A stretch of DNA of 64,000 nt from an uncultured Candidatus Poseidoniales archaeon (GTDB lineage: Archaea; Thermoplasmatota; Poseidoniia; Poseidoniales; Thalassarchaeaceae), in the NCBI GenBank assembly GCA_902573015.1, contig CACGIE010000002.1, forward strand, positions 7,660 through 71,659, read 5' to 3'. Below, piece after piece: positions 4,749 through 32,301 of this stretch. How positions within the stretch are numbered: the first letter of the stretch is position 1; each line of letters opens with the position of its first letter. The notes beneath the pieces are model-generated. The model was given only the letters and a program-made list of their open reading frames with translations, did no database searches and was not told the origin of the DNA. Made by a program: the position numbers and the translations under genes.

Positions 4749-7700
4749 CTACTCCTCAAAGAGGGCTTCGATATCCTCGGGGTCAAGATTGCTGTTTACG
4801 TCGTCAATTCTAGGTGCCGATGGGATTACTGGGGAGTCTTCCTTGGCCAATCCTAACTCGTCCAAAACTTCGTCCAAGTCGTCCAGGATTGCTGTATCTT
4901 CCCGTGGCGATTCCTCCGGCGGTGCGAACATCGCATTGGGATCTATTACAGGAGCCTCCGGTTCATCGAATGCTGCGTCGAAATCGATTTCTGATGCTTT
5001 CTTTTGCTCTTCTTGGTGGCTCTGCCTTGGGTTCCTAATCAATACCCAAGCACCTGCGGAGACTACGATCAAGGTGAAGATTATCGGGACGATATTGGAA
5101 GTCAGTTCATCTGAGAACGTCCTGGGCGCCTCTGCCACTTGGAGATCCATAGTTACAGAATGGCTAGAACTGTCATCTAGGACAGTTAATTTCGCTTTCT
5201 TGGAACCTCCCGAGTCATAGGAGAACTCGATCCACCTGCCGGTATAGTCGACATCGTTAGCGGGATCGCCATCACCGTCCGAGTCTGAGGTGATGTCGAT
5301 GTCCCAGTGGAACTCCAGTGAGTCCATATCTGCTTGAGAGTCCACGGTCCCATTGGCGGAAAGTACGATTGAATCTCCTTCAGTGGGATTTGAGACACTT
5401 GCCGAGGCGAAGGCGGCCGGAGGGGCGTTCACAACGGAGAACGAGAACTCGATTGATGCCGATTCGCCATCATCGTCTGTAACGTGGAAGATGAGGGATT
5501 CTGGGGCAGTAGTCGAGTCTGGCCATGAGTGGACGAGGAAATGCGATTCGACGTCGCAATCGTTTCCAGACTGCCCATCAGAGTCCGAGTCATCGACAGG
5601 GTTCAGGTCGAAGCAGTGAACCAGCCGCTCTGAGTCGGTTCCCGTTTCGATTATCTGCGGGGAAATAGTGAATTCCTCATCCTCTTCAAGCTGTCCCAAG
5701 GTCGTGGTGATTGGAGAAATTACAGGGGCTACGTTCTCCACTTGTATCGGCACTATCAGGACTTCAGTTGACTCACCGTCATCGTCGAATACCTGAAGGG
5801 TTGCAAGGTGCATCCCGGAGGTATTGTACGAAACCCCGGAAATAGTGCTCCTCTCGCCGTAGCTAGAGAAATTCAGATCTGGGAGGTCCTCTGCATCTGG
5901 CCTCCAGACGTGGTTTAGAGATTCGAGGTCGTTTGAGGAGTCGTCGGCCTGGCCCCAGAATGTGATTTCATCACCCTCAAGTACGATGAACACGCCTCTG
6001 CTATCGGGAAAAATCCTAGTCTCACCCAGGTATAGTTCAGCTACCGGATTGGATGGGGCTATGTTGGTCACATGAACGGAGTGCTGGGCCGTCGTGATGG
6101 CTCCGTCATCATCGATCGCCATGACTGAAACGGTCAGGTTCCCCTCGACTGTCGGAGTCAAGGTACACGATTGGCCTACTTGACCCTCCGAGCATCCTGC
6201 ATCCCACAGAATCTCTACTGGTGCAGATGGGTTCAGTGTGTCGATATCGCTGCTGTTAGTCACGAAGAAGGTGATCGGATTGGTCACAATGACTTCATCG
6301 TTGTCGGTTCCGATGGAAATCTCCGGAGGTCGATTGAGTATCGATATCGTGGACTGGGCAGTGGTCTTGTCACTCTCACCATCGGTAATTAATACCTCAA
6401 CTGAGAATGAGCCGTCGTCTGGCCAAGACCATTCCAAGATGCAGTCGTCATCTATGACCTGGAACGTTGAGCCGTCGGCTTTCTGGATGTTGAACTCGCA
6501 TTCTATTTCCCCACCATCGGAATCGTATGAGGAGGTGGCGTCAAGTGTCACCCCCTCATGGGTTTGGACTTCGCTGGGGTGAGATAGGAAGGCAAGAGGC
6601 AGTCCTCCGATATACAGGACGAAGGAGCCTTGGTTGTTGGTCCTGTTCCCATCCTCGGGTATATCCTCCTGGGGGTCAACCTCGAAGTAAAGGTACACGT
6701 TTCCGAATGGCTGGGACTCGGGGACTGTCCAGTTCACGAACACCCTAGATTCCTGCAGGCTCCCCAGAGGAGGAACTGTGCCAGATACTTCCGTACCATC
6801 AGGAGCGCTCACCACGATTGTAGAGTATGGGGACTGAATTAGTCCGCGATTTAACACGGGTACGGAGAAGGTCAGGACGTCTTCCGAGATTGCGGCAAAA
6901 CCGATACTTGAGTCGAGAGTCAGCTGATTCCCAGTGGATGGTCGGAACCTCTGGACGGTAACCGCCGATGACCTAGTGACCAAGTCAATCTCGTGAATCT
7001 CCGAGTCTATCAAAAGAGTCCTAGCTCCGATTATGCTTTCATCGCCAATCCAAGCGATTAATCCATGGCTTCCTAGCTCCCCTGGTCCATCGGTATCATC
7101 AGGATTATCCCCCGAATTGAACACTATGTGGTACGTCCCGTTTTCGTCGGTTGTCACATTCTGAAACTGTTCATCTGATTCATACCTGAATTGTATCTCT
7201 TGTCCAGATACGCCCTGTCCCTGATCAGTTACGTTAATCCAAGCGGATATCTCGATATCAGTGGGTGAGAGGGGGTACTGGACATCGATGGAAACCAACT
7301 TGCCCCTCTGGACTGGCTGATAGCTCACTAGCTCGTGTACTGCGAGGAACCCGAAAGCCTGCTCCATTGTGCTCTTCACCTCTCCTCTTACTGCTGGACA
7401 GAACCAGTTGAATCCGGTCTCCTCCCCGTCAGAGTCGTATGCTGTCACGTTGAACGACTGGTAGCACCCGGGGTAAGCAACACCAGAGTTGCCCTGGCTG
7501 ACTACAGACCAACTGGTTGAGTTGGAGTCGCTCGAGTCATCCGGTATGTCGACGTAATTGCTGGAACCGCTGTAATCAGTGGCTTGTTCGTAATCCATCC
7601 CCCAAGACTCGCCTACTGAGATCGGGAAGTCATAGTTCTCCAATGGGGGCTCATATGTGTTCTCGACGACGAGCTCACCGATATCCTGCCTCAGCCAAGC

Positions 7701-8213
7701 GGCGCATCCGAAGAACAGAGGATCGAAGTATACGTCAATTGTTACTTCCTGGGAATAGGTTGCTAGATCAGAAACTCTGATGATCTCTATTGTCTGCATA
7801 TCCACATAGAGACAACCGCTTGTTCCATCGATTTGTATTACCCCGTCCGACTCGTATTCTCCGACCGATTCCACCTCGTAAACCAGAGTTTCCTTGCCGT
7901 CTATTTCCATTAGGTAGATGTCCTGTACCGTTCGATCTAGTGACCCATCTAGGGTCTCGACATTTGTGGACACCCCTGAGTCTGCAACGAAATCTCCCAC
8001 ATCTAGGAAACCATCGTACATCCAGTTGTCATTCACTCTCCAGATAGGGACATCTGCAGTCCCGGTAGTCGTCATTGCCTGCACATGTGACTCATGGGGG
8101 CTGGAGTCTCTGATGTGATAATCATCGGGTGAAAACGAATAGGAAAATTGTGCAAAGGCAAGAATGGCTACAGCCATTGTCGATAAGCAGGCGGCTCGCA
8201 TGGCATCACGCAA
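4749..8213 (-). CDS. giant secreted, membrane-anchored surface protein with repeated Ig/PKD-like beta domains
   Basis: 1154 aa. N-terminal signal peptide (AVAILAFAQFSYSF). Extremely acidic and rich in T/S/D/G beta-strand repeats. C-terminal TM helix IVPIIFTLIVVSAGAWVLI followed by an acidic cytoplasmic tail ending EDIEALFEE. Confidence 0.85.
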   Translation of the reverse strand: MRDAMRAACLSTMAVAILAFAQFSYSFSPDDYHIRDSSPHESHVQAMTTTGTADVPIWRVNDNWMYDGFLDVGDFVADSGVSTNVETLDGSLDRTVQDIYLMEIDGKETLVYEVESVGEYESDGVIQIDGTSGCLYVDMQTIEIIRVSDLATYSQEVTIDVYFDPLFFGCAAWLRQDIGELVVENTYEPPLENYDFPISVGESWGMDYEQATDYSGSSNYVDIPDDSSDSNSTSWSVVSQGNSGVAYPGCYQSFNVTAYDSDGEETGFNWFCPAVRGEVKSTMEQAFGFLAVHELVSYQPVQRGKLVSIDVQYPLSPTDIEISAWINVTDQGQGVSGQEIQFRYESDEQFQNVTTDENGTYHIVFNSGDNPDDTDGPGELGSHGLIAWIGDESIIGARTLLIDSEIHEIDLVTRSSAVTVQRFRPSTGNQLTLDSSIGFAAISEDVLTFSVPVLNRGLIQSPYSTIVVSAPDGTEVSGTVPPLGSLQESRVFVNWTVPESQPFGNVYLYFEVDPQEDIPEDGNRTNNQGSFVLYIGGLPLAFLSHPSEVQTHEGVTLDATSSYDSDGGEIECEFNIQKADGSTFQVIDDDCILEWSWPDDGSFSVEVLITDGESDKTTAQSTISILNRPPEISIGTDNDEVIVTNPITFFVTNSSDIDTLNPSAPVEILWDAGCSEGQVGQSCTLTPTVEGNLTVSVMAIDDDGAITTAQHSVHVTNIAPSNPVAELYLGETRIFPDSRGVFIVLEGDEITFWGQADDSSNDLESLNHVWRPDAEDLPDLNFSSYGERSTISGVSYNTSGMHLATLQVFDDDGESTEVLIVPIQVENVAPVISPITTTLGQLEEDEEFTISPQIIETGTDSERLVHCFDLNPVDDSDSDGQSGNDCDVESHFLVHSWPDSTTAPESLIFHVTDDDGESASIEFSFSVVNAPPAAFASASVSNPTEGDSIVLSANGTVDSQADMDSLEFHWDIDITSDSDGDGDPANDVDYTGRWIEFSYDSGGSKKAKLTVLDDSSSHSVTMDLQVAEAPRTFSDELTSNIVPIIFTLIVVSAGAWVLIRNPRQSHQEEQKKASEIDFDAAFDEPEAPVIDPNAMFAPPEESPREDTAILDDLDEVLDELGLAKEDSPVIPSAPRIDDVNSNLDPEDIEALFEE

Positions 8214-8243
8214 GCAGGTCTGCCCAATAACGTTGGTTGAAGC

Positions 8244-8960
8244 CTAGAGGAGGTCCGCTAGCTCGTCTTTTATCTGCTCAACTGCCTCAAGAATCTCATC
8301 CTTGTGTCTGGCTCCAGTAATCACCATCTTCCCACTACCGAAAATAAGACACACCACGCGAGGGTAGTCTAGCCTGTAAATCAAGCCTGGGAACTGCTCG
8401 GGCTCGTATTCCACCTTGTCGAATGGAAGGTGGAAGGTCAGGTTGTTCAGATTGAGTTTCCTAGGGAGGGCTGCCAAAGGCTCTCCCTCTAGTATTCCCC
8501 TGATCCTGGGGTCCTCGTTCTCAACTTCCTCGTCGGTTGCTGCTCTGATTCCACCGCCATCTTCGTCGATTACCTTGGTGTTGATGTCGTCCATCTTTGC
8601 GACTTCCCCATAGTCCTCGGGATAGAATAGTGAGTACGTTGCTACCATGTTCTGGACCTCTATCTCAACATCCTTCAGTTCCCAAGTCTCTATTCCGGCA
8701 TTTCTCAGATCTCCGATCATTCTCTCTATGCCTGTCTGGATGTTGTCCTCGTTCTTACCACCAGTACAAACCGCCCTTCCCGATCTGAACATCAGAATCG
8801 CTAACTTTGGATCTACTACCCTGTAGACGACCCCTGGGAACTGCTCTGGCTCGTATTCGCAGTTCAACTGGATTGCTATGTCTGGGAGGTCCAGTTCCTC
8901 CGCTACCCTGGTAGATGCCACCACATTCACTACAGTAAGTCTTTCTTCATCGCTGAGCAT
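8244..8960 (-). CDS. tbp: TATA-box-binding protein
   Basis: Two TBP repeats: ...EYEPEQFPGVVYRV...LMFRSGRAVCTGGK and ...EYEPEQFPGLIYRL...LIFGSGKMVITGAR, plus an acidic tail. An insertion interrupts the second repeat (see findings). Confidence 0.9.
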   Translation of the reverse strand: MLSDEERLTVVNVVASTRVAEELDLPDIAIQLNCEYEPEQFPGVVYRVVDPKLAILMFRSGRAVCTGGKNEDNIQTGIERMIGDLRNAGIETWELKDVEIEVQNMVATYSLFYPEDYGEVAKMDDINTKVIDEDGGGIRAATDEEVENEDPRIRGILEGEPLAALPRKLNLNNLTFHLPFDKVEYEPEQFPGLIYRLDYPRVVCLIFGSGKMVITGARHKDEILEAVEQIKDELADLL

Positions 8961-8980
8961 AGGTTGACGACCGACTTCCC

Positions 8981-9002
8981 TCTTATAAATGGTAATATAA
9001 AG
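8981..9002 (-). promoter_or_regulatory. TATA-like promoter elements upstream of tbp (minus strand reads CTTTATATTA and CATTTATAAG)
   Basis: AT-rich island. The minus-strand TTTATAAG ends about 21 nt before the tbp ATG. That spacing is typical for an archaeal leaderless promoter. Confidence 0.4.
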
Positions 9003-9040
9003 AAGATGAACAAATAGAGCTGGTGTTTTTTCAATTGAAA

Positions 9041-10030
9041 CTACAGAATACTTACTCCTTTTGAGCCTAATTTTGTCTGTAGTGGCCTGCCCCCGGCAAT
9101 CTCGATAGCCTCAGAAACTCTAGCAGGATCCTGGGTGAGTGCCACCATGCACCCCCCTCCGCCGGCACCAGTAAGTTTTGCACCTAGAGAATGGGGCCTT
9201 GCTGCGCTGACCATGCGATCCAACTTATTGGTGCTGACTTCCAACTTCCTGAGACTTTCGTGACAAGCATCCATTGCTATTCCCAAGCCCTCCAGATTTC
9301 CAGCAGAGAGTGCCGTCAATCCCGCTCTCGTAATATTCGCAATTGCCTCCATTTCCTCCATCCTCTGTGGGGACTCAGATATTAGATTCGCTACTTTGGC
9401 TACCATCCTACCAGTTGGAGAGCCTGTACCAGAGTATCCCACTACTAGCCATGCGTCACCAATATCTGCGGGTAGGTCGACGACATTAATCGCCCATTTC
9501 CGCGATCCTTCAGGAGTCTCCAAGCTAGTATCGAAAACGTGTCTAGTTCCTGTAACATGCTCTCCTGAAACCACTACACACCCCCCAAGGGCGCTGGTCG
9601 CTGTATCTGTCGGACTGGCCCTGCCCTTCTGGGCTGTTGCTTCCGCAGAATGAGCCATTTTCGCCAATCTAATCGGATCGAGGGGGATGCGGGGGTTCAG
9701 ATGTGAGTGCAGTGCAGCGCCGAAGGCATTTGATAGAGCAGCGGAAGAGCCCATCCCAGCTGCTGAGAAAAGTGAGCTTTGTACATCAATATCCAGAGGT
9801 TGGCCGTTGTACTGGAAGATATTCTGGATTATATGCGAAATATGCGGGTGCCTGGAGGGCTCGAATGGCTGACCCTCGAGAAGCCATTCATTGGAGTCTT
9901 TCACACTAACTCTTACTCCCTGCTCAATGGCCACGGCTACAGCAGGATGGCCGAAGACTACCGCATGCTCTCCGAAAAGGATACACTTGCCTGGTGCGAA
10001 TGCGCTGGGCATATCTGGTGGCCTGCACAT
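9041..10030 (-). CDS. mvk: mevalonate kinase (GHMP family)
   Basis: APGKCILFGEHAVVFGHPAVAVAI N-terminal motif. GHMP motif FSAAGMGSSAALSNA. Glycine-rich KLTGAGGGGC near the C-terminus. Confidence 0.85.
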   Translation of the reverse strand: MCRPPDMPSAFAPGKCILFGEHAVVFGHPAVAVAIEQGVRVSVKDSNEWLLEGQPFEPSRHPHISHIIQNIFQYNGQPLDIDVQSSLFSAAGMGSSAALSNAFGAALHSHLNPRIPLDPIRLAKMAHSAEATAQKGRASPTDTATSALGGCVVVSGEHVTGTRHVFDTSLETPEGSRKWAINVVDLPADIGDAWLVVGYSGTGSPTGRMVAKVANLISESPQRMEEMEAIANITRAGLTALSAGNLEGLGIAMDACHESLRKLEVSTNKLDRMVSAARPHSLGAKLTGAGGGGCMVALTQDPARVSEAIEIAGGRPLQTKLGSKGVSIL

Positions 10031-26201: not shown

Positions 26202-27182
26202 ATGTTGGCCCTACCGTCGGGCATGGGTCCGTATCGCGTGTTAGCAGTGACCGTGGTTATTCTGTCGTTCTCCCTTGCCGGATGCACTGGGGGGTCCTCA
26301 GGGGTAGGTAGCACTGGATCCGACAAGATTGAGGTGCCCACATGGGAGACGGGAGACTGGTGGCTGTACACATTTTCAACTCCGGACTACAGCGACGATA
26401 CTGCAAGGCTAGTTGTAGCAAGTACCAGCGAAGAAGACGGGACTGCGTACATGTTAGCGATTTCTAGCCTCACTGAAGCAAGGAGGCATGCCGTACTGAA
26501 CCACAACCCTTTCCTTGGCAGAATTACCCACTCCGATCTAGGTGCTTTCGAAAACGGAGCCCCCCAGCAAGTGCTCAGTTTCCCAATGGAGCAGGGGGAC
26601 TCATGGTCATTCACCCTTTTCTCAATGGAGTGGAGTGCTTTCGTTTCCGATATATCAGGAAGTACTGCGGTAGTAATCGCCAACTCTGATGATGGTTCTA
26701 GGCTGGATTACGTTTTCGACCACGAAATTGGATTCTTCCAGTCGTTCACCTGGAATGATGCTTCGGGAACCTCGAACCTTAGGATGATGTTGTCGGACTC
26801 GGGTTCTGGGCACACTGGTGACGTCTACTTCGTCAGAGGGGGTGACCTCTTCAGCGAAACATGGGAAGACCCGGGTAATGACATTGAGTTTAGGGACACT
26901 TTCCTCGTCAACGATCATCCTAGTGATGGAGAATGGGATGAGATGATCTACTTCATGGACGCAGAATGTGGTTCTGGTTCATCCATTTCCTTTACGCTGA
27001 GAGACCATATGTCAATCTCAGTACTTGAGAGGATTTGGGGGCCGGGAGCTAGTGAGATGGGCACCCTGGGCACCATTCCCTATCCTTCTGGCGAATACAC
27101 CCTAACTGCGACATTCACAGGTGGATCGACGTTCTTGAGAGTCAGAATTGCCGGTGGGATCACACAGTCCTGGACACTCTAG
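26202..27182 (+). CDS. secreted lipoprotein, hypothetical
   Basis: Signal peptide with lipobox SLAGC. Acidic beta-rich body. No enzymatic motifs recognised. Confidence 0.6.
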   Translation: MLALPSGMGPYRVLAVTVVILSFSLAGCTGGSSGVGSTGSDKIEVPTWETGDWWLYTFSTPDYSDDTARLVVASTSEEDGTAYMLAISSLTEARRHAVLNHNPFLGRITHSDLGAFENGAPQQVLSFPMEQGDSWSFTLFSMEWSAFVSDISGSTAVVIANSDDGSRLDYVFDHEIGFFQSFTWNDASGTSNLRMMLSDSGSGHTGDVYFVRGGDLFSETWEDPGNDIEFRDTFLVNDHPSDGEWDEMIYFMDAECGSGSSISFTLRDHMSISVLERIWGPGASEMGTLGTIPYPSGEYTLTATFTGGSTFLRVRIAGGITQSWTL

Positions 27183-27424
27183 AGGTATTCCAGAAGGTTG
27201 TCTGACCCTCCCACGAATATGGGGGCGCCTCCTCGCATATCGAAAACCACAGGGACCGTTCTATGACCGGTCTCCATCACGACTTCCTTTCGAAGGCCTT
27301 CGAAGTTATCCAGATTCACTTCGGAGTAGGTTAGTCCCTTGGAATCTAAGGTTCTGAAAGCCCGAGTGCAGTATGGACATATTGTCTGTGTGAAGACCAG
27401 GAAGTCTTCATTCGTACCTTCCAT
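27179..27424 (-). CDS. glutaredoxin
   Basis: CPYC active site, TVPVVF, GG motif. The start is taken at the internal ATG (MEGTNEDF), giving an 81-aa Grx and avoiding overlap with the upstream gene. The track ORF extends to 27469. Confidence 0.8.
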   Translation of the reverse strand: MEGTNEDFLVFTQTICPYCTRAFRTLDSKGLTYSEVNLDNFEGLRKEVVMETGHRTVPVVFDMRGGAPIFVGGSDNLLEYL

Positions 27425-27428
27425 TATT

Positions 27429-30400
27429 TCATGCACTTGCGACAGGCTGCTCGCCCCCTTCTTCAGCATCCCACCATGGAGATTCCCCTAGGTCATCTAA
27501 TTCATCGTCACCGTCCCATCTACCTTCGAGCACGCGATCAGTCTCATTCTCGTCTATGAAGAGTAGGAAGAAGGTGGTGACGAGGGTCAGAGCAGCGCCT
27601 ATGTAGATTGCAGATGTGTAGTTGAAGACGGATATCATCCTCTCTGTCAGTGTGTATGCGAAAACGACCGAGGTATTCAGGATGGACATGTATGCTGTGA
27701 ACTGTGTGCCTCCTACCTTGCTCCATGTTAGCCTCATACACAGAGAAATAATGCAAATAAGAGCTATTCCAGCAACGAAGTACTGGCCAATCAGATATAT
27801 TGTCATGACCAAGGTGTTCCCCCACATGGGCTCCAGGAAAGCAAAGGTGGCATTCGCTAGGGCCAGTACCAAGAAGGAGACCATCGCTACTCTGCGAATC
27901 CCAAACTTGTCTCCGAGGATGCCGCCGATTATCTGCCCTGAAACTGAGCCGAGCAAGGCGATACCGCCGACTATGCCATTGTACTTCTGTTGGGACCAGC
28001 CTGCCTCATTGATGAAGATGTCAACGTAAATCGGGCTGGTGAAGTAATACAGCTCACCGAGTAGACCTGCTATAACCAGCAGGAAGGCGGACCTGACTGA
28101 GAAGGCCTTGGTCAGATAGAATGATGTTCTTGCTACTGTTTTACTGACAGACTCTGGATCGAAACGGCCGTTTCCGGGCATATAGTTGGATATTGCGCCA
28201 ATTGGAGCAAGAATCAGCAATATCGGGTTTGGTAAGGCATCCTCGGATTGTGGTGAAATGAGCCTTGATTTCCCCGTCGAAATGACCGAAAGAAGAATCA
28301 GCGCGAGGCTGATCCTATTCGTCCCAGACCACGGCCTGAGATCAAATCCGAGGATTTGTTTTGCCTCTAGGGCCGGGAATCCTATTCTGACGTTCTTACC
28401 GAAGCCCCAGTCTACCGTGAAGACATCCATCACGAAGCCGAATAGCCAGATACAGGCTCCAGAAACTGCGAGGAAGGAGGAGATTGATACTCGCTTGTTG
28501 GCAATACTGTAGCCGACTATTCTTGCTACTCGGAACTCTTCCTCTTCCTCCCATGGAGCCTCTTCTGAGTCATCCACCACCTCTGCGATCAATGCCCCTG
28601 AGTCTGTCCTTGATTTGGGCGAGTCTGTCACATCCGTAGTTCTTGACCATGGGAACAATTGGACGCCTGGTTTCTCAACCATGAGAAGTGGCACCATTAT
28701 GATGAATGCGAGCATCACTAATTGCGCGGCTATTACTCCAGAGATTCCTATCTTGGTAATTAACACCCCCAGGACCGCCCCTCCGAAGATGATTCCAACC
28801 CTCTTTGCGGCGAACATGAGGCCGTTCACCCTAGCTACCTCATCGGGCTCGAGGACCTCAACTGCGAGAGCATCGGTTGCCACATCCTGCAGGGACGAGA
28901 ATATATTGTGGACGAATAGGATTCGGGCAACTAGGTCAATCTGCCCGTTCAAGTCCGGAACCAGAAGCAAGGAGCCGAGGGTCAGTGCCATTCCAGTTTG
29001 GGCGAATACGATCCATTGCCTTCGGGGACCGTACTTCTCGATGTAAATGGAGTCAACCAGAGGCCCCCATATCCACTTGAAGGTCCATGGGAGGGAGACT
29101 GTTGCGAACAGAATCGCTATCTCGGGAACTGAAACCCCATTTGCCACGAGATATGCTGCAAAGGTTACGCTTGCGAAACCCTGTGGCAAACCTTGGGCGA
29201 AGTAGAGTAGGCAAAGGGTTAGTACTCTCTTAATGGGGTTCTCGGTTATCGCCCCTCCCTTGCCTAGCTCAGAGATGTTTTTCGACATCCTCTCAGACCA
29301 AGACAAGGTTTCCTCTGGCTCTAGAGAAGACGCTGAATCTTCGTGATTTTCGTCGCTTTCGGAAGTCGTGGTTTGGAGCCATTCTTCCCTCCTACCGACG
29401 AACAAAACTAGGGCTATTGCTAGTAGGAAGGGTACGAAGAAGGCTATTGGACCTAGGTTGGTCAATCCCGATGAAGACGATGAGCCAGAAAATTGGACAT
29501 CGAGCAGAATAACCCTCCTAGCGTCGACTGGAGAAATGCTATCATCCGAAACTACCAGCCTTGCATAAATCGTCGAGTTTCCGGATTTTTCATGAGGGTC
29601 TAATTTTATGCTCCAAGATGACCAGTCCCCGTCCTTGGATAGATCGGCGGCTCCCGACCAAAGGCCTCCGCCTATCTTAACCTCGACCAAGCCGGTGCCT
29701 GGGGCTGCTCCACTGGAGGTTCCGGTGACATAGCTCTCGTTCCCTATTTCTTGAAGTGTGGAGACTTCCATTGAGACATTCAGGGATCTATCTATGCTCC
29801 CAGCCGCCTCGACGAAGGCAGTTGGGTCTGCCTGGCCGAAACCGAACTCGTTGTCAGGACGAGTTTCTAGTACGCTGCAGTCGTTGAATCCGGGGTCATT
29901 CAAGAGTTGGATGTCTCTCTCGATAGAGTGAGCGGAGATGATGTCCTTGAACTCTGTCGGAGTCAAATCGGGGTTCGCTTGAACCATCAGTGCAGCGATT
30001 CCAGCCATAAGTGGCGTGGCCATGCTAGTTCCTGACTTGCTCGTGTACCCATCCTGAGTCGCTGCATCGGGAGCCATGATGCTGGAACCTATCGTAGCGA
30101 CATCCGGCTTGACTCGGAAGTCCGAGGTGTACCCTCGACTACTGTAAATCGCGAGACCTAGGTCCTTGTCTAGGCTGGCCACAGTGACTGGTAGCTCTGC
30201 GTCACCTGGGCTGTCGATTGTGTTACACCCAGCAAGGGTCGCTCCACCGAATTCGTTACCCGCCGAGAGAGTAGTAATGATTCCGGCCTCAACGACCATA
30301 TCCATCTGACGGCTCCACGCGGAACTCCCGTCATTGTCGATGTGAACCTCGAACTGCTGTTCTCCCAAGGAGGAGGTGACTATGTCGATACCGTACTTGT

Positions 30401-31355
30401 CCCTGTTGTCTATGGCCCACTGGGCACCTTGCATCACATCCTCGATATCGCCATCGCAACAACCTAGGATGTTGATCAGGTAGGCTCCGGGAGCTGCACC
30501 GACATATCGTAAACCGGTTCCAGGATCTGTCTGCCCACCACCGGAACCAGCGGCAATTCCTGCGACGTGGGTACCGTGGGTGCCCGAATCATATGACGTA
30601 GAAGGGTCTTGTTCTTCATCGGTGAAAACTGCATCAAAGAAAGCGATAATCTTCGGATCGCAGTCGGAGGGGATTGGCTGTGGCTCTGGGTCCAGAGGAT
30701 CTGGCTCGGGAGGGTCATCGATACAGGTAAAGGGATCATCGTCCATATCGTTAAGGCCCTCATGGTCGCCACGAACTCCTGTATCTAGGATTGCGATTAC
30801 AGATCCAGTTCCGTCTAGTCCGAAGTCATTCCAGACTGTGTCAACAGCCATGTTGGGGACGGCTTCATGCATGTTTGTCTCAGCCAGTCCAAGATCCTCA
30901 ATCATCACAACCCCACTGAGTGATCTGATCCCATTTTCATCCAATATTGAGGACACTGGTGAGGTGGCCGAGACAGTATTGAGGTATCCGAACCTGAAAG
31001 TAACTTCGACCCCTAGTGACTCTAAGGCAGAGATATCGGCATCAGTTGGGTGGTGGTCGTAGTCTACGAAGATCCTTGCATGTTCTTCCGGAGCCCTCCT
31101 CCACCAATCCCTCTTGACTTCCTCCGGTTGCTCAATTAGCCATTCTAGTCTGTCGTCAATGGAGTTGGAATCCTTGTCTCTGCTCCAATGTGTCCACCAT
31201 TTCCAATGTATGTCTGACTCCACTGATGGGGCCCACTTTCCTTCGGCATCAAAACCGCCGTTAGGTACTTCTTCTACCCAAATAGAGGAAGACGCCATGG
31301 GAGCTATTAGGACCAATAGAGCCAGGGGCAAGAACATCGAGCGGCGTCCGGCCAT
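27429..31355 (-). CDS. fusion protein: secreted subtilisin-like S8 protease (with propeptide) + single TM + AmpG/PAT-like MFS permease
   Basis: One uninterrupted 1308-codon frame. Signal peptide. S8 catalytic triad blocks AILDTGV (Asp), HGTHVAG (His), GTSMATP (Ser). Then a TM anchor (FFVPFLLAIALVLFV), an acidic linker, and a 12-14 TM MFS with LYFAQGLPQGF...PWTFKWIWGPLVD (AmpG-like). Confidence 0.85.
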   Translation of the reverse strand: MAGRRSMFLPLALLVLIAPMASSSIWVEEVPNGGFDAEGKWAPSVESDIHWKWWTHWSRDKDSNSIDDRLEWLIEQPEEVKRDWWRRAPEEHARIFVDYDHHPTDADISALESLGVEVTFRFGYLNTVSATSPVSSILDENGIRSLSGVVMIEDLGLAETNMHEAVPNMAVDTVWNDFGLDGTGSVIAILDTGVRGDHEGLNDMDDDPFTCIDDPPEPDPLDPEPQPIPSDCDPKIIAFFDAVFTDEEQDPSTSYDSGTHGTHVAGIAAGSGGGQTDPGTGLRYVGAAPGAYLINILGCCDGDIEDVMQGAQWAIDNRDKYGIDIVTSSLGEQQFEVHIDNDGSSAWSRQMDMVVEAGIITTLSAGNEFGGATLAGCNTIDSPGDAELPVTVASLDKDLGLAIYSSRGYTSDFRVKPDVATIGSSIMAPDAATQDGYTSKSGTSMATPLMAGIAALMVQANPDLTPTEFKDIISAHSIERDIQLLNDPGFNDCSVLETRPDNEFGFGQADPTAFVEAAGSIDRSLNVSMEVSTLQEIGNESYVTGTSSGAAPGTGLVEVKIGGGLWSGAADLSKDGDWSSWSIKLDPHEKSGNSTIYARLVVSDDSISPVDARRVILLDVQFSGSSSSSGLTNLGPIAFFVPFLLAIALVLFVGRREEWLQTTTSESDENHEDSASSLEPEETLSWSERMSKNISELGKGGAITENPIKRVLTLCLLYFAQGLPQGFASVTFAAYLVANGVSVPEIAILFATVSLPWTFKWIWGPLVDSIYIEKYGPRRQWIVFAQTGMALTLGSLLLVPDLNGQIDLVARILFVHNIFSSLQDVATDALAVEVLEPDEVARVNGLMFAAKRVGIIFGGAVLGVLITKIGISGVIAAQLVMLAFIIMVPLLMVEKPGVQLFPWSRTTDVTDSPKSRTDSGALIAEVVDDSEEAPWEEEEEFRVARIVGYSIANKRVSISSFLAVSGACIWLFGFVMDVFTVDWGFGKNVRIGFPALEAKQILGFDLRPWSGTNRISLALILLSVISTGKSRLISPQSEDALPNPILLILAPIGAISNYMPGNGRFDPESVSKTVARTSFYLTKAFSVRSAFLLVIAGLLGELYYFTSPIYVDIFINEAGWSQQKYNGIVGGIALLGSVSGQIIGGILGDKFGIRRVAMVSFLVLALANATFAFLEPMWGNTLVMTIYLIGQYFVAGIALICIISLCMRLTWSKVGGTQFTAYMSILNTSVVFAYTLTERMISVFNYTSAIYIGAALTLVTTFFLLFIDENETDRVLEGRWDGDDELDDLGESPWWDAEEGGEQPVASA

Positions 31356-31401: not shown

Positions 31402-32301
31402 TCATCCAATAACCTGTACTCCTTGCTCGTCGAAGTCCCAATCCAGAATTTGCCAACCCTCGTCCTCGATGTACTGAGTGGCATATTCCTTGCCAGAAGG
31501 TGAGCAAAGCAAAGCTGAGCACCCCCCTCCCCCGGCCCCTAGCGCCTTCCAAGCTACGATCGATCCTGACTCAATCAGAGGCATGACGACAGCTCGAAAC
31601 GGATCGTGAATAGTGGGGTCGATCATATCGACTCCCTCGCAGACTCCCCTCAATGAAGAAACTACCAAATCTCTCCTATCCTGTTGCAAACCTTTTGCCA
31701 TCTCTCTCGCGGAACTCCTTATCTTGTGCAAACCTTGGATTACTCCCTCGTCCCCATTTGAGTAACTGGACCATACCGATTCCTGGATTTCCCCTGAATT
31801 CCTGCTGCTTCCTGAGTAAGCAATTACCAGGTGCTTCTTCAGCCAATTCAATGAGGACTTCATCGGCTCGAAAGGCATTCTCTCTACCGAGTCTCCAATA
31901 AACAGAAGGTGATTGAAGCCGCCAACTGCAGAGGCCCAATGATCTTGCCTTCCACAGCGATTCTCTTTTGACTCTGAAAGGAATGCCTGCTCGGCTATTT
32001 CATCGAGGTTCTCTAATTGGCTTGACGAAGTTAGCGCTGCCAGTGCAACATTCATCGCTGAACTGGTTCCCAGACCGGAACCACGAGGAACTGGGAAGTC
32101 GAATTCTAAATCAGAATCTTCCACTTCCTCACGTTTCCTTACCCTAACTCTATGATTTATTGCGAAATTTACTACCTCTCCACCAAAATCTGTAGGATAG
32201 GGGGGAACATCGGTCCATCCTCCCGCCAAATCCACCCTTAATGGGGCCGAAGATTCTGTGGAGCCGCTCATAGGACAATGCGAGGGGTTCGAAGACATCA
32301 C
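31402..32301 (-). CDS. GHMP-family sugar kinase (HddA/fucokinase-like)
   Basis: LRVDLAGGWTDVPPYPTDFGGEVVNFAI matches the xRIxFxGGGTDxxxYxxxxGGxVxNxAI N-terminal signature of COG2605 kinases. GHMP ATP motif PRGSGLGTSSAMNVA. Confidence 0.6.
   Translation of the reverse strand: MMSSNPSHCPMSGSTESSAPLRVDLAGGWTDVPPYPTDFGGEVVNFAINHRVRVRKREEVEDSDLEFDFPVPRGSGLGTSSAMNVALAALTSSSQLENLDEIAEQAFLSESKENRCGRQDHWASAVGGFNHLLFIGDSVERMPFEPMKSSLNWLKKHLVIAYSGSSRNSGEIQESVWSSYSNGDEGVIQGLHKIRSSAREMAKGLQQDRRDLVVSSLRGVCEGVDMIDPTIHDPFRAVVMPLIESGSIVAWKALGAGGGGCSALLCSPSGKEYATQYIEDEGWQILDWDFDEQGVQVIG

Follow-up and report, generated by a model that had tools for sequence, protein, structure and literature searches.

A subtilase-permease fusion of Poseidoniia archaea as a candidate coupled digest-and-import protein

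Results and Discussion

A 64,000-nucleotide stretch of DNA from an uncultured Candidatus Poseidoniales archaeon (contig CACGIE010000002.1, positions 7,660 to 71,659; hereafter the window) contains a gene that encodes, in a single polypeptide, a secreted subtilisin-type (S8) protease and a permease of the major facilitator superfamily (MFS). The gene lies at window positions 27429-31355 on the minus strand and forms one open reading frame (ORF) of 1308 codons plus a stop codon (27429-27431), with no internal stops. The same fusion is found across Marine Group II archaea and also in Marine Group III, and relatives of its permease core also carry other extracellular domains. We propose that the tethered protease feeds its own fused importer, a reading on which we find belief and doubt evenly balanced.

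One polypeptide joins a tethered subtilase to a 14-helix permease

Reading from the N-terminus, with every feature on the minus strand, the protein begins with a predicted signal peptide (residues 1-24, 31284..31355, MAGRRSMFLPLALLVLIAPMASSS) whose hydropathy peaks over residues 7-25 and whose consensus, MxGRR...APLASSS, is kept among homologs with two arginines in the n-region. This conserved Arg-Arg (GRR, residues 3-5, window positions 31341-31349) stands before the hydrophobic run and is loosely twin-arginine-like. An N-terminal pro-region follows (residues 25-181, 30813..31283, HWKWWTHWSRDKD; column identity to homologs 73-86%), which is probably a subtilase propeptide with a Trp-rich leader, and then the S8 catalytic domain (residues 182-507, 29835..30812). 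A beta-sandwich, Ig-like domain (residues 508-620, 29496..29834; AlphaFold strands 526-617, predicted local distance difference test [pLDDT] 76-88) leads into a Ser/Gly stalk (residues 621-635, 29451..29495, QFSGSSSSSGLTNLG), a short membrane tether that contains no charged residues and differs in length between homologs. The ectodomain as a whole is strongly acidic, with 34 K/R against 103 D/E.

The first transmembrane (TM) helix, TM0 (residues 636-656, 29388..29450), is an AlphaFold helix predicted to run from outside to inside and to end in RR; it is the top hydropathy peak (2.62) and bears the motif G..FF[IV]P[FW]F. Beyond it lie a cytoplasmic acidic linker (residues 657-706, 29238..29387; 3 K/R, 13 D/E) with an amphipathic helix at 686-698, the MFS N-lobe with TM1-6 (residues 707-891, 28683..29237; Pfam MFS_1, Acatn, and BT1), a central region (residues 892-1087, 28095..28682), the MFS C-lobe with TM7-12 (residues 1088-1264, 27564..28094; second MFS_1 stretch, pLDDT 83-92, with E1101 in TM7), and a cytoplasmic acidic tail (residues 1265-1308, 27432..27563; 2 K/R, 16 D/E). 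In the AlphaFold model, the central region contributes two additional TM helices, at 958-980 and 1008-1032, along with helices on the cytoplasmic side and an acidic cytoplasmic loop that is disordered. It is poorly conserved (24-39%) and is missing from a clade of paralogs with M28 or cupredoxin ectodomains. The tail, which is disordered in the model, opens with a conserved juxtamembrane motif, FID-x-x-E-T-D-R-V-L-E-G-R, and the pattern ID[PE]..T[RD]R.L also occurs in M28, cupredoxin, and plain relatives.

The model of residues 630-1308, built with 38 homologs (pLDDT 70, predicted template modeling score 0.69), gives a TM count of 1+14 with the N-terminus out and the C-terminus in. The predicted topology thus has the protease outside, TM0 running out-to-in, and both ends of the MFS domain inside. 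A preliminary description of this sequence, made from its letters, had read the same anatomy: an uninterrupted 1308-codon frame, a complete subtilisin domain with its D/H/S blocks, a beta domain of roughly 100 residues, one TM helix, and a permease of 12-14 TM helices with a cytoplasmic N-terminus. All of these features agree with the analysis, including profile searches with hidden Markov models (HMMs), in which Peptidase_S8 and MFS_1 both scored over their thresholds and the permease half matched transporter models.

The fused frame is kept in independent assemblies

Two adjacent genes could have been joined artificially by a missed stop codon or frameshift, or by a chimeric assembly, and we regard this as extremely improbable. 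A search over 5.8 billion proteins returned at least 120 clusters of 1223-1317 aa at 60-96% identity, and the S8 and MFS domains occurred together in 120/120 of those listed. The clusters come from ENA, JGI, NCBI, Tara, and Logan, and some carry the automatic JGI annotation “subtilisin family serine protease/MFS family permease.” A genome scan using one genome per species yielded 79 loci, with titles that were nearly all Poseidoniales, Marine Group II (MGII), or Thalassarchaeaceae. The S8 serine motif and the MFS motif shared one frame in 61 locus ORFs, and truncations fell at contig ends. The whole fusion was present in two single-cell genomes (L001, at 98%, and L006) and on the 1.6-Mb contig of a long-read metagenome-assembled genome (MAG; L064). 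An exact look-up of the window protein itself gave no record, and the 96%-identical P0001 was used instead; the same 1308-aa product is found there on 13 contigs, and the three shown are from three different samples. The independent data therefore hold the same fusion architecture that the preliminary description proposed to look for in metagenomes, with no stop codon or frameshift between the halves. An assembly artifact was rejected because independent assemblies keep the single ORF.

No part of the protein is less conserved than the linker between the halves (18% identity, 37% gaps among orthologs), and the aligned homologs show no internal Met that is conserved within it. From S444 to the MFS motif, 20 different spacings were counted, from 241 to 299 residues (a variation of up to 58), with the frame always kept. 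The linker drifts in length, yet the frame is never lost, which is direct evidence of selection for one polypeptide.

Two loci in the scan deserve separate mention. At L062 (UBA8684, 5782-9884), the sole locus with the fusion split into two overlapping ORFs, the break falls inside the protease domain at about query residues 377-396 and not at the junction, so that it represents a pseudogene or an assembly error. At L042 (NZWI01000049.1), a 24-kb contig with the fusion and its usual upstream neighbors sits in a MAG titled Candidatus Neomarinimicrobiota bacterium; this contig was probably mis-binned.

The ectodomain is an intact-looking subtilase

The Pfam family Peptidase_S8 (PF00082) matches residues 182-507 over its entire profile (1-288/288; E 7.4e-43, 147.3 bits against a cut-off of 21.8). 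The catalytic motifs appear in the triad order Asp-His-Ser together with the oxyanion Asn: D191 (DTG, 30783-30785), H260 (HGTH, 30576-30578), N367 (SAGNE, 30255-30257), and S444 (GTSMA, 30024-30026). All four are kept in 120/120 listed homologs, and the S8 domain is the most conserved part of the fusion (86-96% column identity). An insert rich in Pro and Asp, with two Cys, occupies residues 207-235. The nearest solved relative of the ectodomain by sequence is Tk-SP (3AFG, E 3.8e-38).

The pro-region had been described as I9-like, a claim that fared less evenly. Pfam I9 gave no match at E<=1 in the fusion protein. Residues ~92-152 are predicted to form a beta-alpha-beta-beta-alpha-beta pattern (AlphaFold, pLDDT 70-87), and a Foldseek search with the ectodomain model returned ProN-Tk-SP (3AFG) first, followed by unprocessed pro-subtilisin E (3WHI). 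This model is poor overall (mean pLDDT 43.5, from a shallow alignment), and only its pro-region and beta domain are usable. Because the strand and helix pattern fits and the best structural matches are pro-forms of subtilases, an I9 propeptide is plausible on the model. The beta-sandwich matched Ig-like, filamin, PKD, and CopC-type sandwiches.

The permease half lies near AmpG and SLC33A1

MFS_1 (Pfam PF07690) matches the permease half in two stretches (E 2.5e-25, 89.6 bits against a cut-off of 33.4), and further Pfam matches are Acatn (residues 713-793) and BT1 (721-888). The top NCBIfam MFS family is AmpG (TIGR00901, residues 709-1265), which at 115.6 bits remains far under its 350-bit cut-off; the AmpG equivalog models reach 45-62 bits where their cut-offs are 656-756, and the second family, the RhtX/FptX siderophore importers, is also far under cut-off. 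The nearest solved permeases by sequence are SLC33A1 (1.8e-11) and AmpG (3.8e-10). Foldseek ranks four AmpG structures first (9J9Z, 8ZBB, 8ZGZ, and 9C3F; E 7e-12 to 2e-8), followed by 14-TM efflux pumps (EfpA and an Rv1410 homolog), SV2A, and SLC33A1, and in total 272 MFS chains in the PDB match the permease model at E<=1e-3. Because AmpG and SLC33A1 are nearest by sequence and AmpG structures lead by fold, the permease belongs to the AmpG/Acatn (PAT) neighborhood of the MFS. We take the AmpG/PAT family to be TCDB 2.A.1.25.

Within the 6+6 MFS core (TM1-6 and TM7-12 in the AlphaFold model), motif A lies between TM2 and TM3. The segment G-P-L-V-D768...G-P-R778-R779 is invariant and includes the N-lobe motif A, G776-P-R778-R779. 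Both family motifs pointed out in the preliminary description are present, LYFAQGLPQGF at position 717 and PWTFKWIWGP..D at position 756. A cryo-EM study of AmpG (PMC12214514) assigned substrate and proton residues to K62, D125, and D129, with D70 and R79-81 in motif A and D238, E326, and R365 in the C-lobe. In a HMMER alignment, K62 corresponds to K760 of the fusion, D70 to D768, R80/81 to R778/779, D125 to D824, and D129 to D828, all of which are invariant in a 38-sequence alignment. AmpG D238 aligns with the invariant E1101, in a C-lobe alignment that is very weak (1.9 bits). Both halves of the fusion look functional by sequence, since the D/H/N/S motifs, motif A, and the counterparts of AmpG K62, D70, D125, and D129 are invariant.

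AmpG, RhtX/FptX, and BT1 are importers. Transport of muropeptides by the permease is unlikely in an archaeal host; a murein sacculus is not expected in an archaeon, and there were no murein-recycling genes among the conserved neighbors of the fusion loci.

The TM0-MFS core carries exchangeable ectodomains

To place the fusion among its relatives, a HMMER pass with query residues 170-1308 was made over 1.84 billion representative proteins, and the best 150 matches were taken. Among these, S8 and MFS occur together in two 50%-identity clusters alone: P0011, from MGII, and P0122, whose members are named Marine Group III (MGIII) euryarchaeote or Ca. Poseidoniia archaeon. Within the best 150 representatives, the architecture is thus confined to MGII and MGIII (class Poseidoniia). 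The next-best matches are relatives of the permease in which other N-terminal ectodomains precede the same TM0. These are a Cys-rich beta domain of ~200 aa (P0121, P0124, P0131), an M28 peptidase (P0129), a plastocyanin-type cupredoxin (P0133), and, in P0130 from a Thermoplasmatota archaeon, a domain with no assigned family. Lower-ranked matches comprise ~100 plain MFS proteins of 420-470 aa at 32-40% identity, some of them named PAT family or AmpG and one from a Pirellulales bacterium.

The pre-TM0/TM0 motif, followed by basic and acidic residues, is common to the different ectodomain versions, and we therefore conclude that the TM0-MFS core is shared and the ectodomains have been exchanged. 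The fusion is one member of a modular family built as ectodomain-TM0-AmpG-like MFS, in which two enzymatic versions, S8 and M28, are seen. Two plain AmpG-like relatives that lie outside the clade with ectodomains, P0159 and P0204, carry C-terminal domains of extracytoplasmic type, 3-keto-disaccharide hydrolase/DUF1080 and FG-GAP repeats, so this MFS neighborhood seems prone to joining surface domains.

The M28-TM0-MFS version forms at least 57 clusters of 844-960 aa, named Euryarchaeota or Thermoplasmatota archaeon (P0129, at L083 8001-10610; also P0428 and P0430). The peptidase, an aminopeptidase, looks intact, with the usual M28 metal-ligand motifs seen by inspection. Downstream of it lie genes for glutaredoxin, an alpha/beta hydrolase, a 320-aa protein, the H+-PPase, GATase, and NifU; the H+-PPase is 87-89% identical to those at S8 loci, and identity for the lipoprotein-like neighbor does not exceed 60%. 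A second M28 group (~860-908 aa, Thalassarchaeaceae M28 peptidase) has a divergent membrane domain with an AmpG-like FFLRPLWAQPV...GKRRSW and no Pfam MFS hit on record. The cupredoxin-TM0-MFS version, of plastocyanin/halocyanin type, accounts for at least 120 clusters and is widespread in Ca. Poseidoniaceae (MGIIa); examples are the genes at 9001-10968 of L085/L086 (P0542; P0133 family). An OPT oligopeptide transporter gene lies ~7 kb from this cupredoxin-MFS gene.

A proposed route from extracellular protein to imported peptide

Under the reading that we favor, Sec export and removal of the signal peptide would come first, after which the subtilase would fold with the help of its propeptide and autoprocess. 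The mature enzyme would stay tethered within a few nm of the outer face of its own permease and cut dissolved or particulate proteins at the cell surface. The AmpG-like, proton-coupled permease would then import the resulting peptides or peptide-containing fragments before they were lost by diffusion, and such loss would be the main cost of extracellular enzymes to a free-living cell in dilute seawater. Coupled digestion and import had already been suggested in the preliminary description. The anatomy and topology on which that suggestion depended have stood up, and the function stays an inference, with the M28 parallel in its favor and the replaced ectodomains and MFS-free subtilases described below against it.

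Several points speak for this proposal. An unrelated peptidase, M28, occurs on the same TM0-MFS core with the same downstream neighbors in another lineage. In addition, one TM helix anchors a 73%-identical subtilase, so anchoring alone does not explain a 14-TM partner. The nearest MFS families by sequence are importers, and non-covalent parallels have been published for AmpG1 with Slt (PMC13507758) and PepT1/2 with trypsin (PMC4597091). We put forward more tentatively, and with greater doubt than conviction, a broader version: that an endopeptidase (S8) or aminopeptidase (M28) plus TM0 plus an AmpG-like proton-coupled permease make up a covalent cut-and-import family in MGII and MGIII, each molecule capturing the products of its own hydrolysis, that this family is a principal route for protein-derived carbon and nitrogen into these abundant planktonic archaea, that its swappable ectodomain determines what is supplied to the permease, and that it is the first fusion of an extracellular protease to a secondary transporter.

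Several findings weigh against coupled digestion and import, beginning with natural variants that have a different partner or none. In 12-13 MGIIb species, the syntenic gene encodes a protein of ~885 aa with a Cys-rich domain in place of the protease (L071 5383-8037 and L075 5386-8046; also L066, L068, L069, L072-L074, and L076-L079). This short variant has a signal peptide, a Cys-rich beta-type ectodomain of ~210 aa (FWG..CW..F...GYGEI) with no Pfam hit, and the same TM0, linker, and MFS domain; ectodomains of this type are also found on two further MFS clades (P0124 and P0131). Its clade nests inside the S8 clade, beside the query's subclade, in a neighbor-joining tree that is rough, distance-based, and unbootstrapped, which makes the branching provisional. 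By hhalign, the short-variant and S8 ectodomains are homologous at residues 598-659 alone. We considered whether the short variant might be the beta domain left over after a deletion and rejected this, since the homology covers only the last strand, the stalk, and TM0. The sequences indicate that it is a secondary replacement of the protease, and therefore that the permease can work without the protease.

Two genomes that are both labeled MGIIb-O1 differ at this locus: the complete S8 fusion of L064 (LRMED-022) has another TM0 and its linker is very short, and the variant of L071 (ALOHA_A2.0_21) lacks the protease. They do not fall together in the MFS tree, a hint of recombination or of loosely applied genus labels.

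The protease is likewise found by itself. P0123 (L087 1437-3455) is a 672-aa stand-alone protein of S8, beta domain, stalk, and TM helix, 73% identical to the ectodomain, which ends in RSRKNRISREK just past its single TM helix. It is present on nine Tara contigs at a locus other than the fusion's, with no MFS gene near it on those contigs; the gene upstream was considered as a displaced MFS and rejected, as it is not one. P0123 could be either the unfused ancestral type or a duplicated half. A 47%-identical subtilase, P0157, is built in the same way with a single TM helix. The cupredoxin paralog, for its part, sits at another locus, between acyl-CoA and 3-hydroxyacyl-CoA dehydrogenase genes (beta-oxidation). 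Given the replaced protease, the cupredoxin paralog, and the MFS-free subtilases, neither half strictly needs the other. The fusion likely originated when a TM-anchored subtilase was joined to a permease with a cytoplasmic N-terminus, for which a linker alone was needed.

The remaining counterevidence concerns the substrate. The NCBIfam AmpG score of the permease is a third of the cut-off, and AmpG E326 and R365 pair with unlike residues in the very weak (1.9-bit) C-lobe alignment. We know of no characterized AmpG/PAT member that carries plain peptides. The neighboring genes (riboflavin genes, a GHMP kinase, a glutaredoxin, and the H+-PPase) are of housekeeping type and uninformative on peptide catabolism.

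Alternative explanations of the fusion

The fusion could instead serve co-expression and surface retention and not channeling, with a transporter whose substrate is unrelated to proteolysis displaying assorted ectodomains. We consider this rather unlikely, though it accounts well for the heterogeneity of the ectodomains, among which the cupredoxin and the Cys-rich beta domain are not hydrolases, and for the loss or replacement of S8 at the same locus with the MFS domain kept. The common TM0 motif is what swaps of ectodomains onto a fixed core would leave, plain relatives carry C-terminal DUF1080 or FG-GAP fusions, and the location of the cupredoxin paralog among beta-oxidation genes fits such a platform better than it fits peptide uptake. 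Against these points, a 14-TM anchor is unneeded where one TM helix anchors subtilases of 73% and 47% identity, two unrelated peptidase families appear among the few ectodomains seen, and the fused state is kept across MGII and MGIII though the linker drifts freely. Another conceivable arrangement, which we think improbable, reverses the direction of transport: the MFS domain would export a precursor (a peptide, lipopeptide, or surface component) which the tethered subtilase matures outside. Precedents are the LanP-type and PatA/G-type subtilases and the mycosin at the type VII secretion machine, and mycosin is in fact the top NCBIfam match of the protease half (TIGR03921), with PatA/G and CspBA among the next. 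However, all of these are far under cut-off (58.3 bits against 278.75 for mycosin), and the conserved neighborhood contains no precursor, modification, or ESX genes; for these reasons, membership in the mycosin/type VII secretion system and maturation of the lanthipeptide or cyanobactin type were rejected. Many MFS proteins are exporters, and the 14-TM pumps EfpA and the Rv1410 homolog are among the Foldseek matches, but the closest MFS families by sequence import, and the M28 version is a typical nutritional exopeptidase.

The two halves might also part after synthesis, if a polyprotein were cut in the stalk or linker once inserted, whether by its own subtilase or by a different protease, so that the parts worked independently and the fusion ensured only 1:1 synthesis and Sec targeting. 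Subtilases do autoprocess, and the Ser/Gly stalk and the disordered linker are both exposed and unconserved. Nevertheless, the cytoplasmic linker is beyond the reach of an ectoprotease, a cut in the stalk would lose the enzyme to the seawater, a waste for a planktonic cell, and the stand-alone homologs retain their TM anchor. We accordingly give little credence to separation of the halves.

Gene neighborhood of the fusion

Elsewhere in the window there is no MFS or S8 paralog, and the window contains no tRNAs. Directly downstream of the fusion lies a glutaredoxin-like gene with a CPYC motif (27179..27469, minus strand; Pfam Glutaredoxin, E 5e-14). Its start at 27469 overlaps the last 41 nt of the fusion, and a start at M16 would lie 5 nt past the fusion's stop codon. 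A glutaredoxin gene adjoins the fusion in 56/65 S8 loci and the short variant in 12/12 loci, and it also adjoins the M28-MFS gene. One solved structure of SLC33A1 (9MUN) is a complex with oxidized glutathione. It would be pure speculation to tie the glutaredoxin to an import of peptides that contain disulfides or resemble glutathione.

Upstream, after a 46-nt gap, follows a GHMP-type sugar-kinase-like gene (31402..32301, minus strand; Pfam GHMP_kinases_N) with weak NCBIfam matches to HddA (heptose-7-phosphate kinase) and fucokinase; it is present in 48 of the 65 S8 loci and 11 of the 12 short-variant loci. Past it is an equally conserved, divergent cluster of ribB, a RibL-like cytidylyltransferase gene, and a riboflavin synthase gene (ribE-ribL-ribB). 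On the other side, between the glutaredoxin and membrane pyrophosphatase genes, the plus strand encodes a 326-aa protein (26202-27182) with a lipoprotein-like N-terminus (LAGCTGG) and no Pfam or NCBIfam match, kept in 54/65 S8 loci and 11/12 short-variant loci. The short-variant loci share ribE-ribL-ribB, the GHMP-like kinase, the glutaredoxin, a 320-aa lipoprotein-like protein, and the H+-PPase.

Relation to the literature and significance

The uncultured MGII rank among the most abundant archaea in surface ocean waters, and a life on proteins and lipids has long been inferred for them. In papers on the group, extracellular S8 peptidases and transporters are listed separately (PMC6864105, PMC4660358, PMC9723583). 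An “unclassified archaea subtilisin” was noted for MGII (PMC4660358), and a “subtilase” which may or may not be the fusion gene is among their highly transcribed genes (PMC9723583); the permease half is mentioned in none of the three. Full-text literature searches found no description of an S8-MFS fusion. The statement in the preliminary description that no equivalent has been described consequently holds for the covalent fusion, with the qualification that non-covalent counterparts (PMC13507758, PMC4597091) and the automatic annotation exist. Both part families and the idea of coupling an enzyme to a transporter are already known. The covalent form, its confinement to Poseidoniia within the set of relatives seen, and the family of swappable ectodomains appear undescribed.

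The fusion makes a conserved S8 protease of MGII physically part of a transporter. It is a concrete candidate, open to cloning, for the means by which a free-living cell in dilute water keeps the products of its exo-enzymes. Natural controls exist as well, in the form of the same core bearing M28, a non-enzymatic domain, or a cupredoxin, and of the same protease on a bare TM anchor. If coupled digestion and import is true, this would be the first role for the PAT/AmpG clade in archaea that involves neither muropeptides nor acetyl-CoA.

Comparison with known systems

For the protease half, the closest counterpart is Tk-SP of Thermococcus kodakarensis (3AFG), which is also archaeal and has the same order of N-propeptide, S8 domain, and C-terminal beta domain. 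Tk-SP is soluble and secreted, whereas in the fusion the beta domain is followed by a stalk, a TM helix, and the 14-TM permease, and the catalytic domain has the two-Cys, Pro/Asp-rich insert at 207-235. Mycosin (MycP, ESX type VII) resembles the fusion in that a single C-terminal TM helix holds an S8 domain outside and the protease is physically joined to transport machinery in the membrane. The differences are that this attachment is non-covalent and the machinery exports proteins, and no ESX genes are found at the fusion locus.

For the permease half, AmpG of E. coli and Yokenella (9C3F, 8ZGZ, 9J9Z), a proton-coupled importer of a peptide-bearing substrate (PMC12214514), is the best match by HMM and fold and shares motif A, the N-lobe residues, and 14 TM helices. 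In AmpG the extra helix pair is C-terminal (6+6+2), while in the fusion it is central (6+2+6); the fusion also has the N-terminal TM0 and ectodomain and an archaeal host, and E326 and R365 are not evidently conserved in it. Among solved proteins, the acetyl-CoA transporter SLC33A1/AT-1 (9M0S, 9MUN; Pfam Acatn) matches the MFS N-lobe best by sequence. It is, in contrast, a eukaryotic carrier of the ER membrane with no ectodomain, and the N-lobe alone aligns.

The nearest precedents for such coupling are non-covalent. In Acinetobacter baumannii, a periplasmic domain of AmpG1 binds the lytic transglycosylase Slt (J Biol Chem 2026, PMC13507758), so that the extracytoplasmic domain of an AmpG-family importer retains, at the transporter mouth, an enzyme that cleaves a polymer and thereby couples cleavage to import. 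That enzyme cleaves glycan of the cell's own wall, whereas the fusion carries a protease in the same polypeptide and its coupling is inferred. The extracellular Ig-like domains of mammalian PepT1 and PepT2 bind trypsin (Structure 2015, PMC4597091) and are likewise extra domains on an MFS importer, proposed to cluster proteolysis at the site of peptide uptake. Transport persists when they are removed, and the short variant suggests that the S8 domain is dispensable in the same way. The PepT proteins belong to the POT family, however, bind transiently with micromolar affinity, and carry the domain between TM9 and TM10, unlike the N-terminal ectodomain of the fusion with its extra TM helix. The Poseidoniia protein would take the principle now emerging for AmpG and Slt, and proposed for PepT and trypsin, to its limit in a covalent fusion: here the extracytoplasmic domain is the enzyme, and a 15-residue stalk and TM0 hold it.

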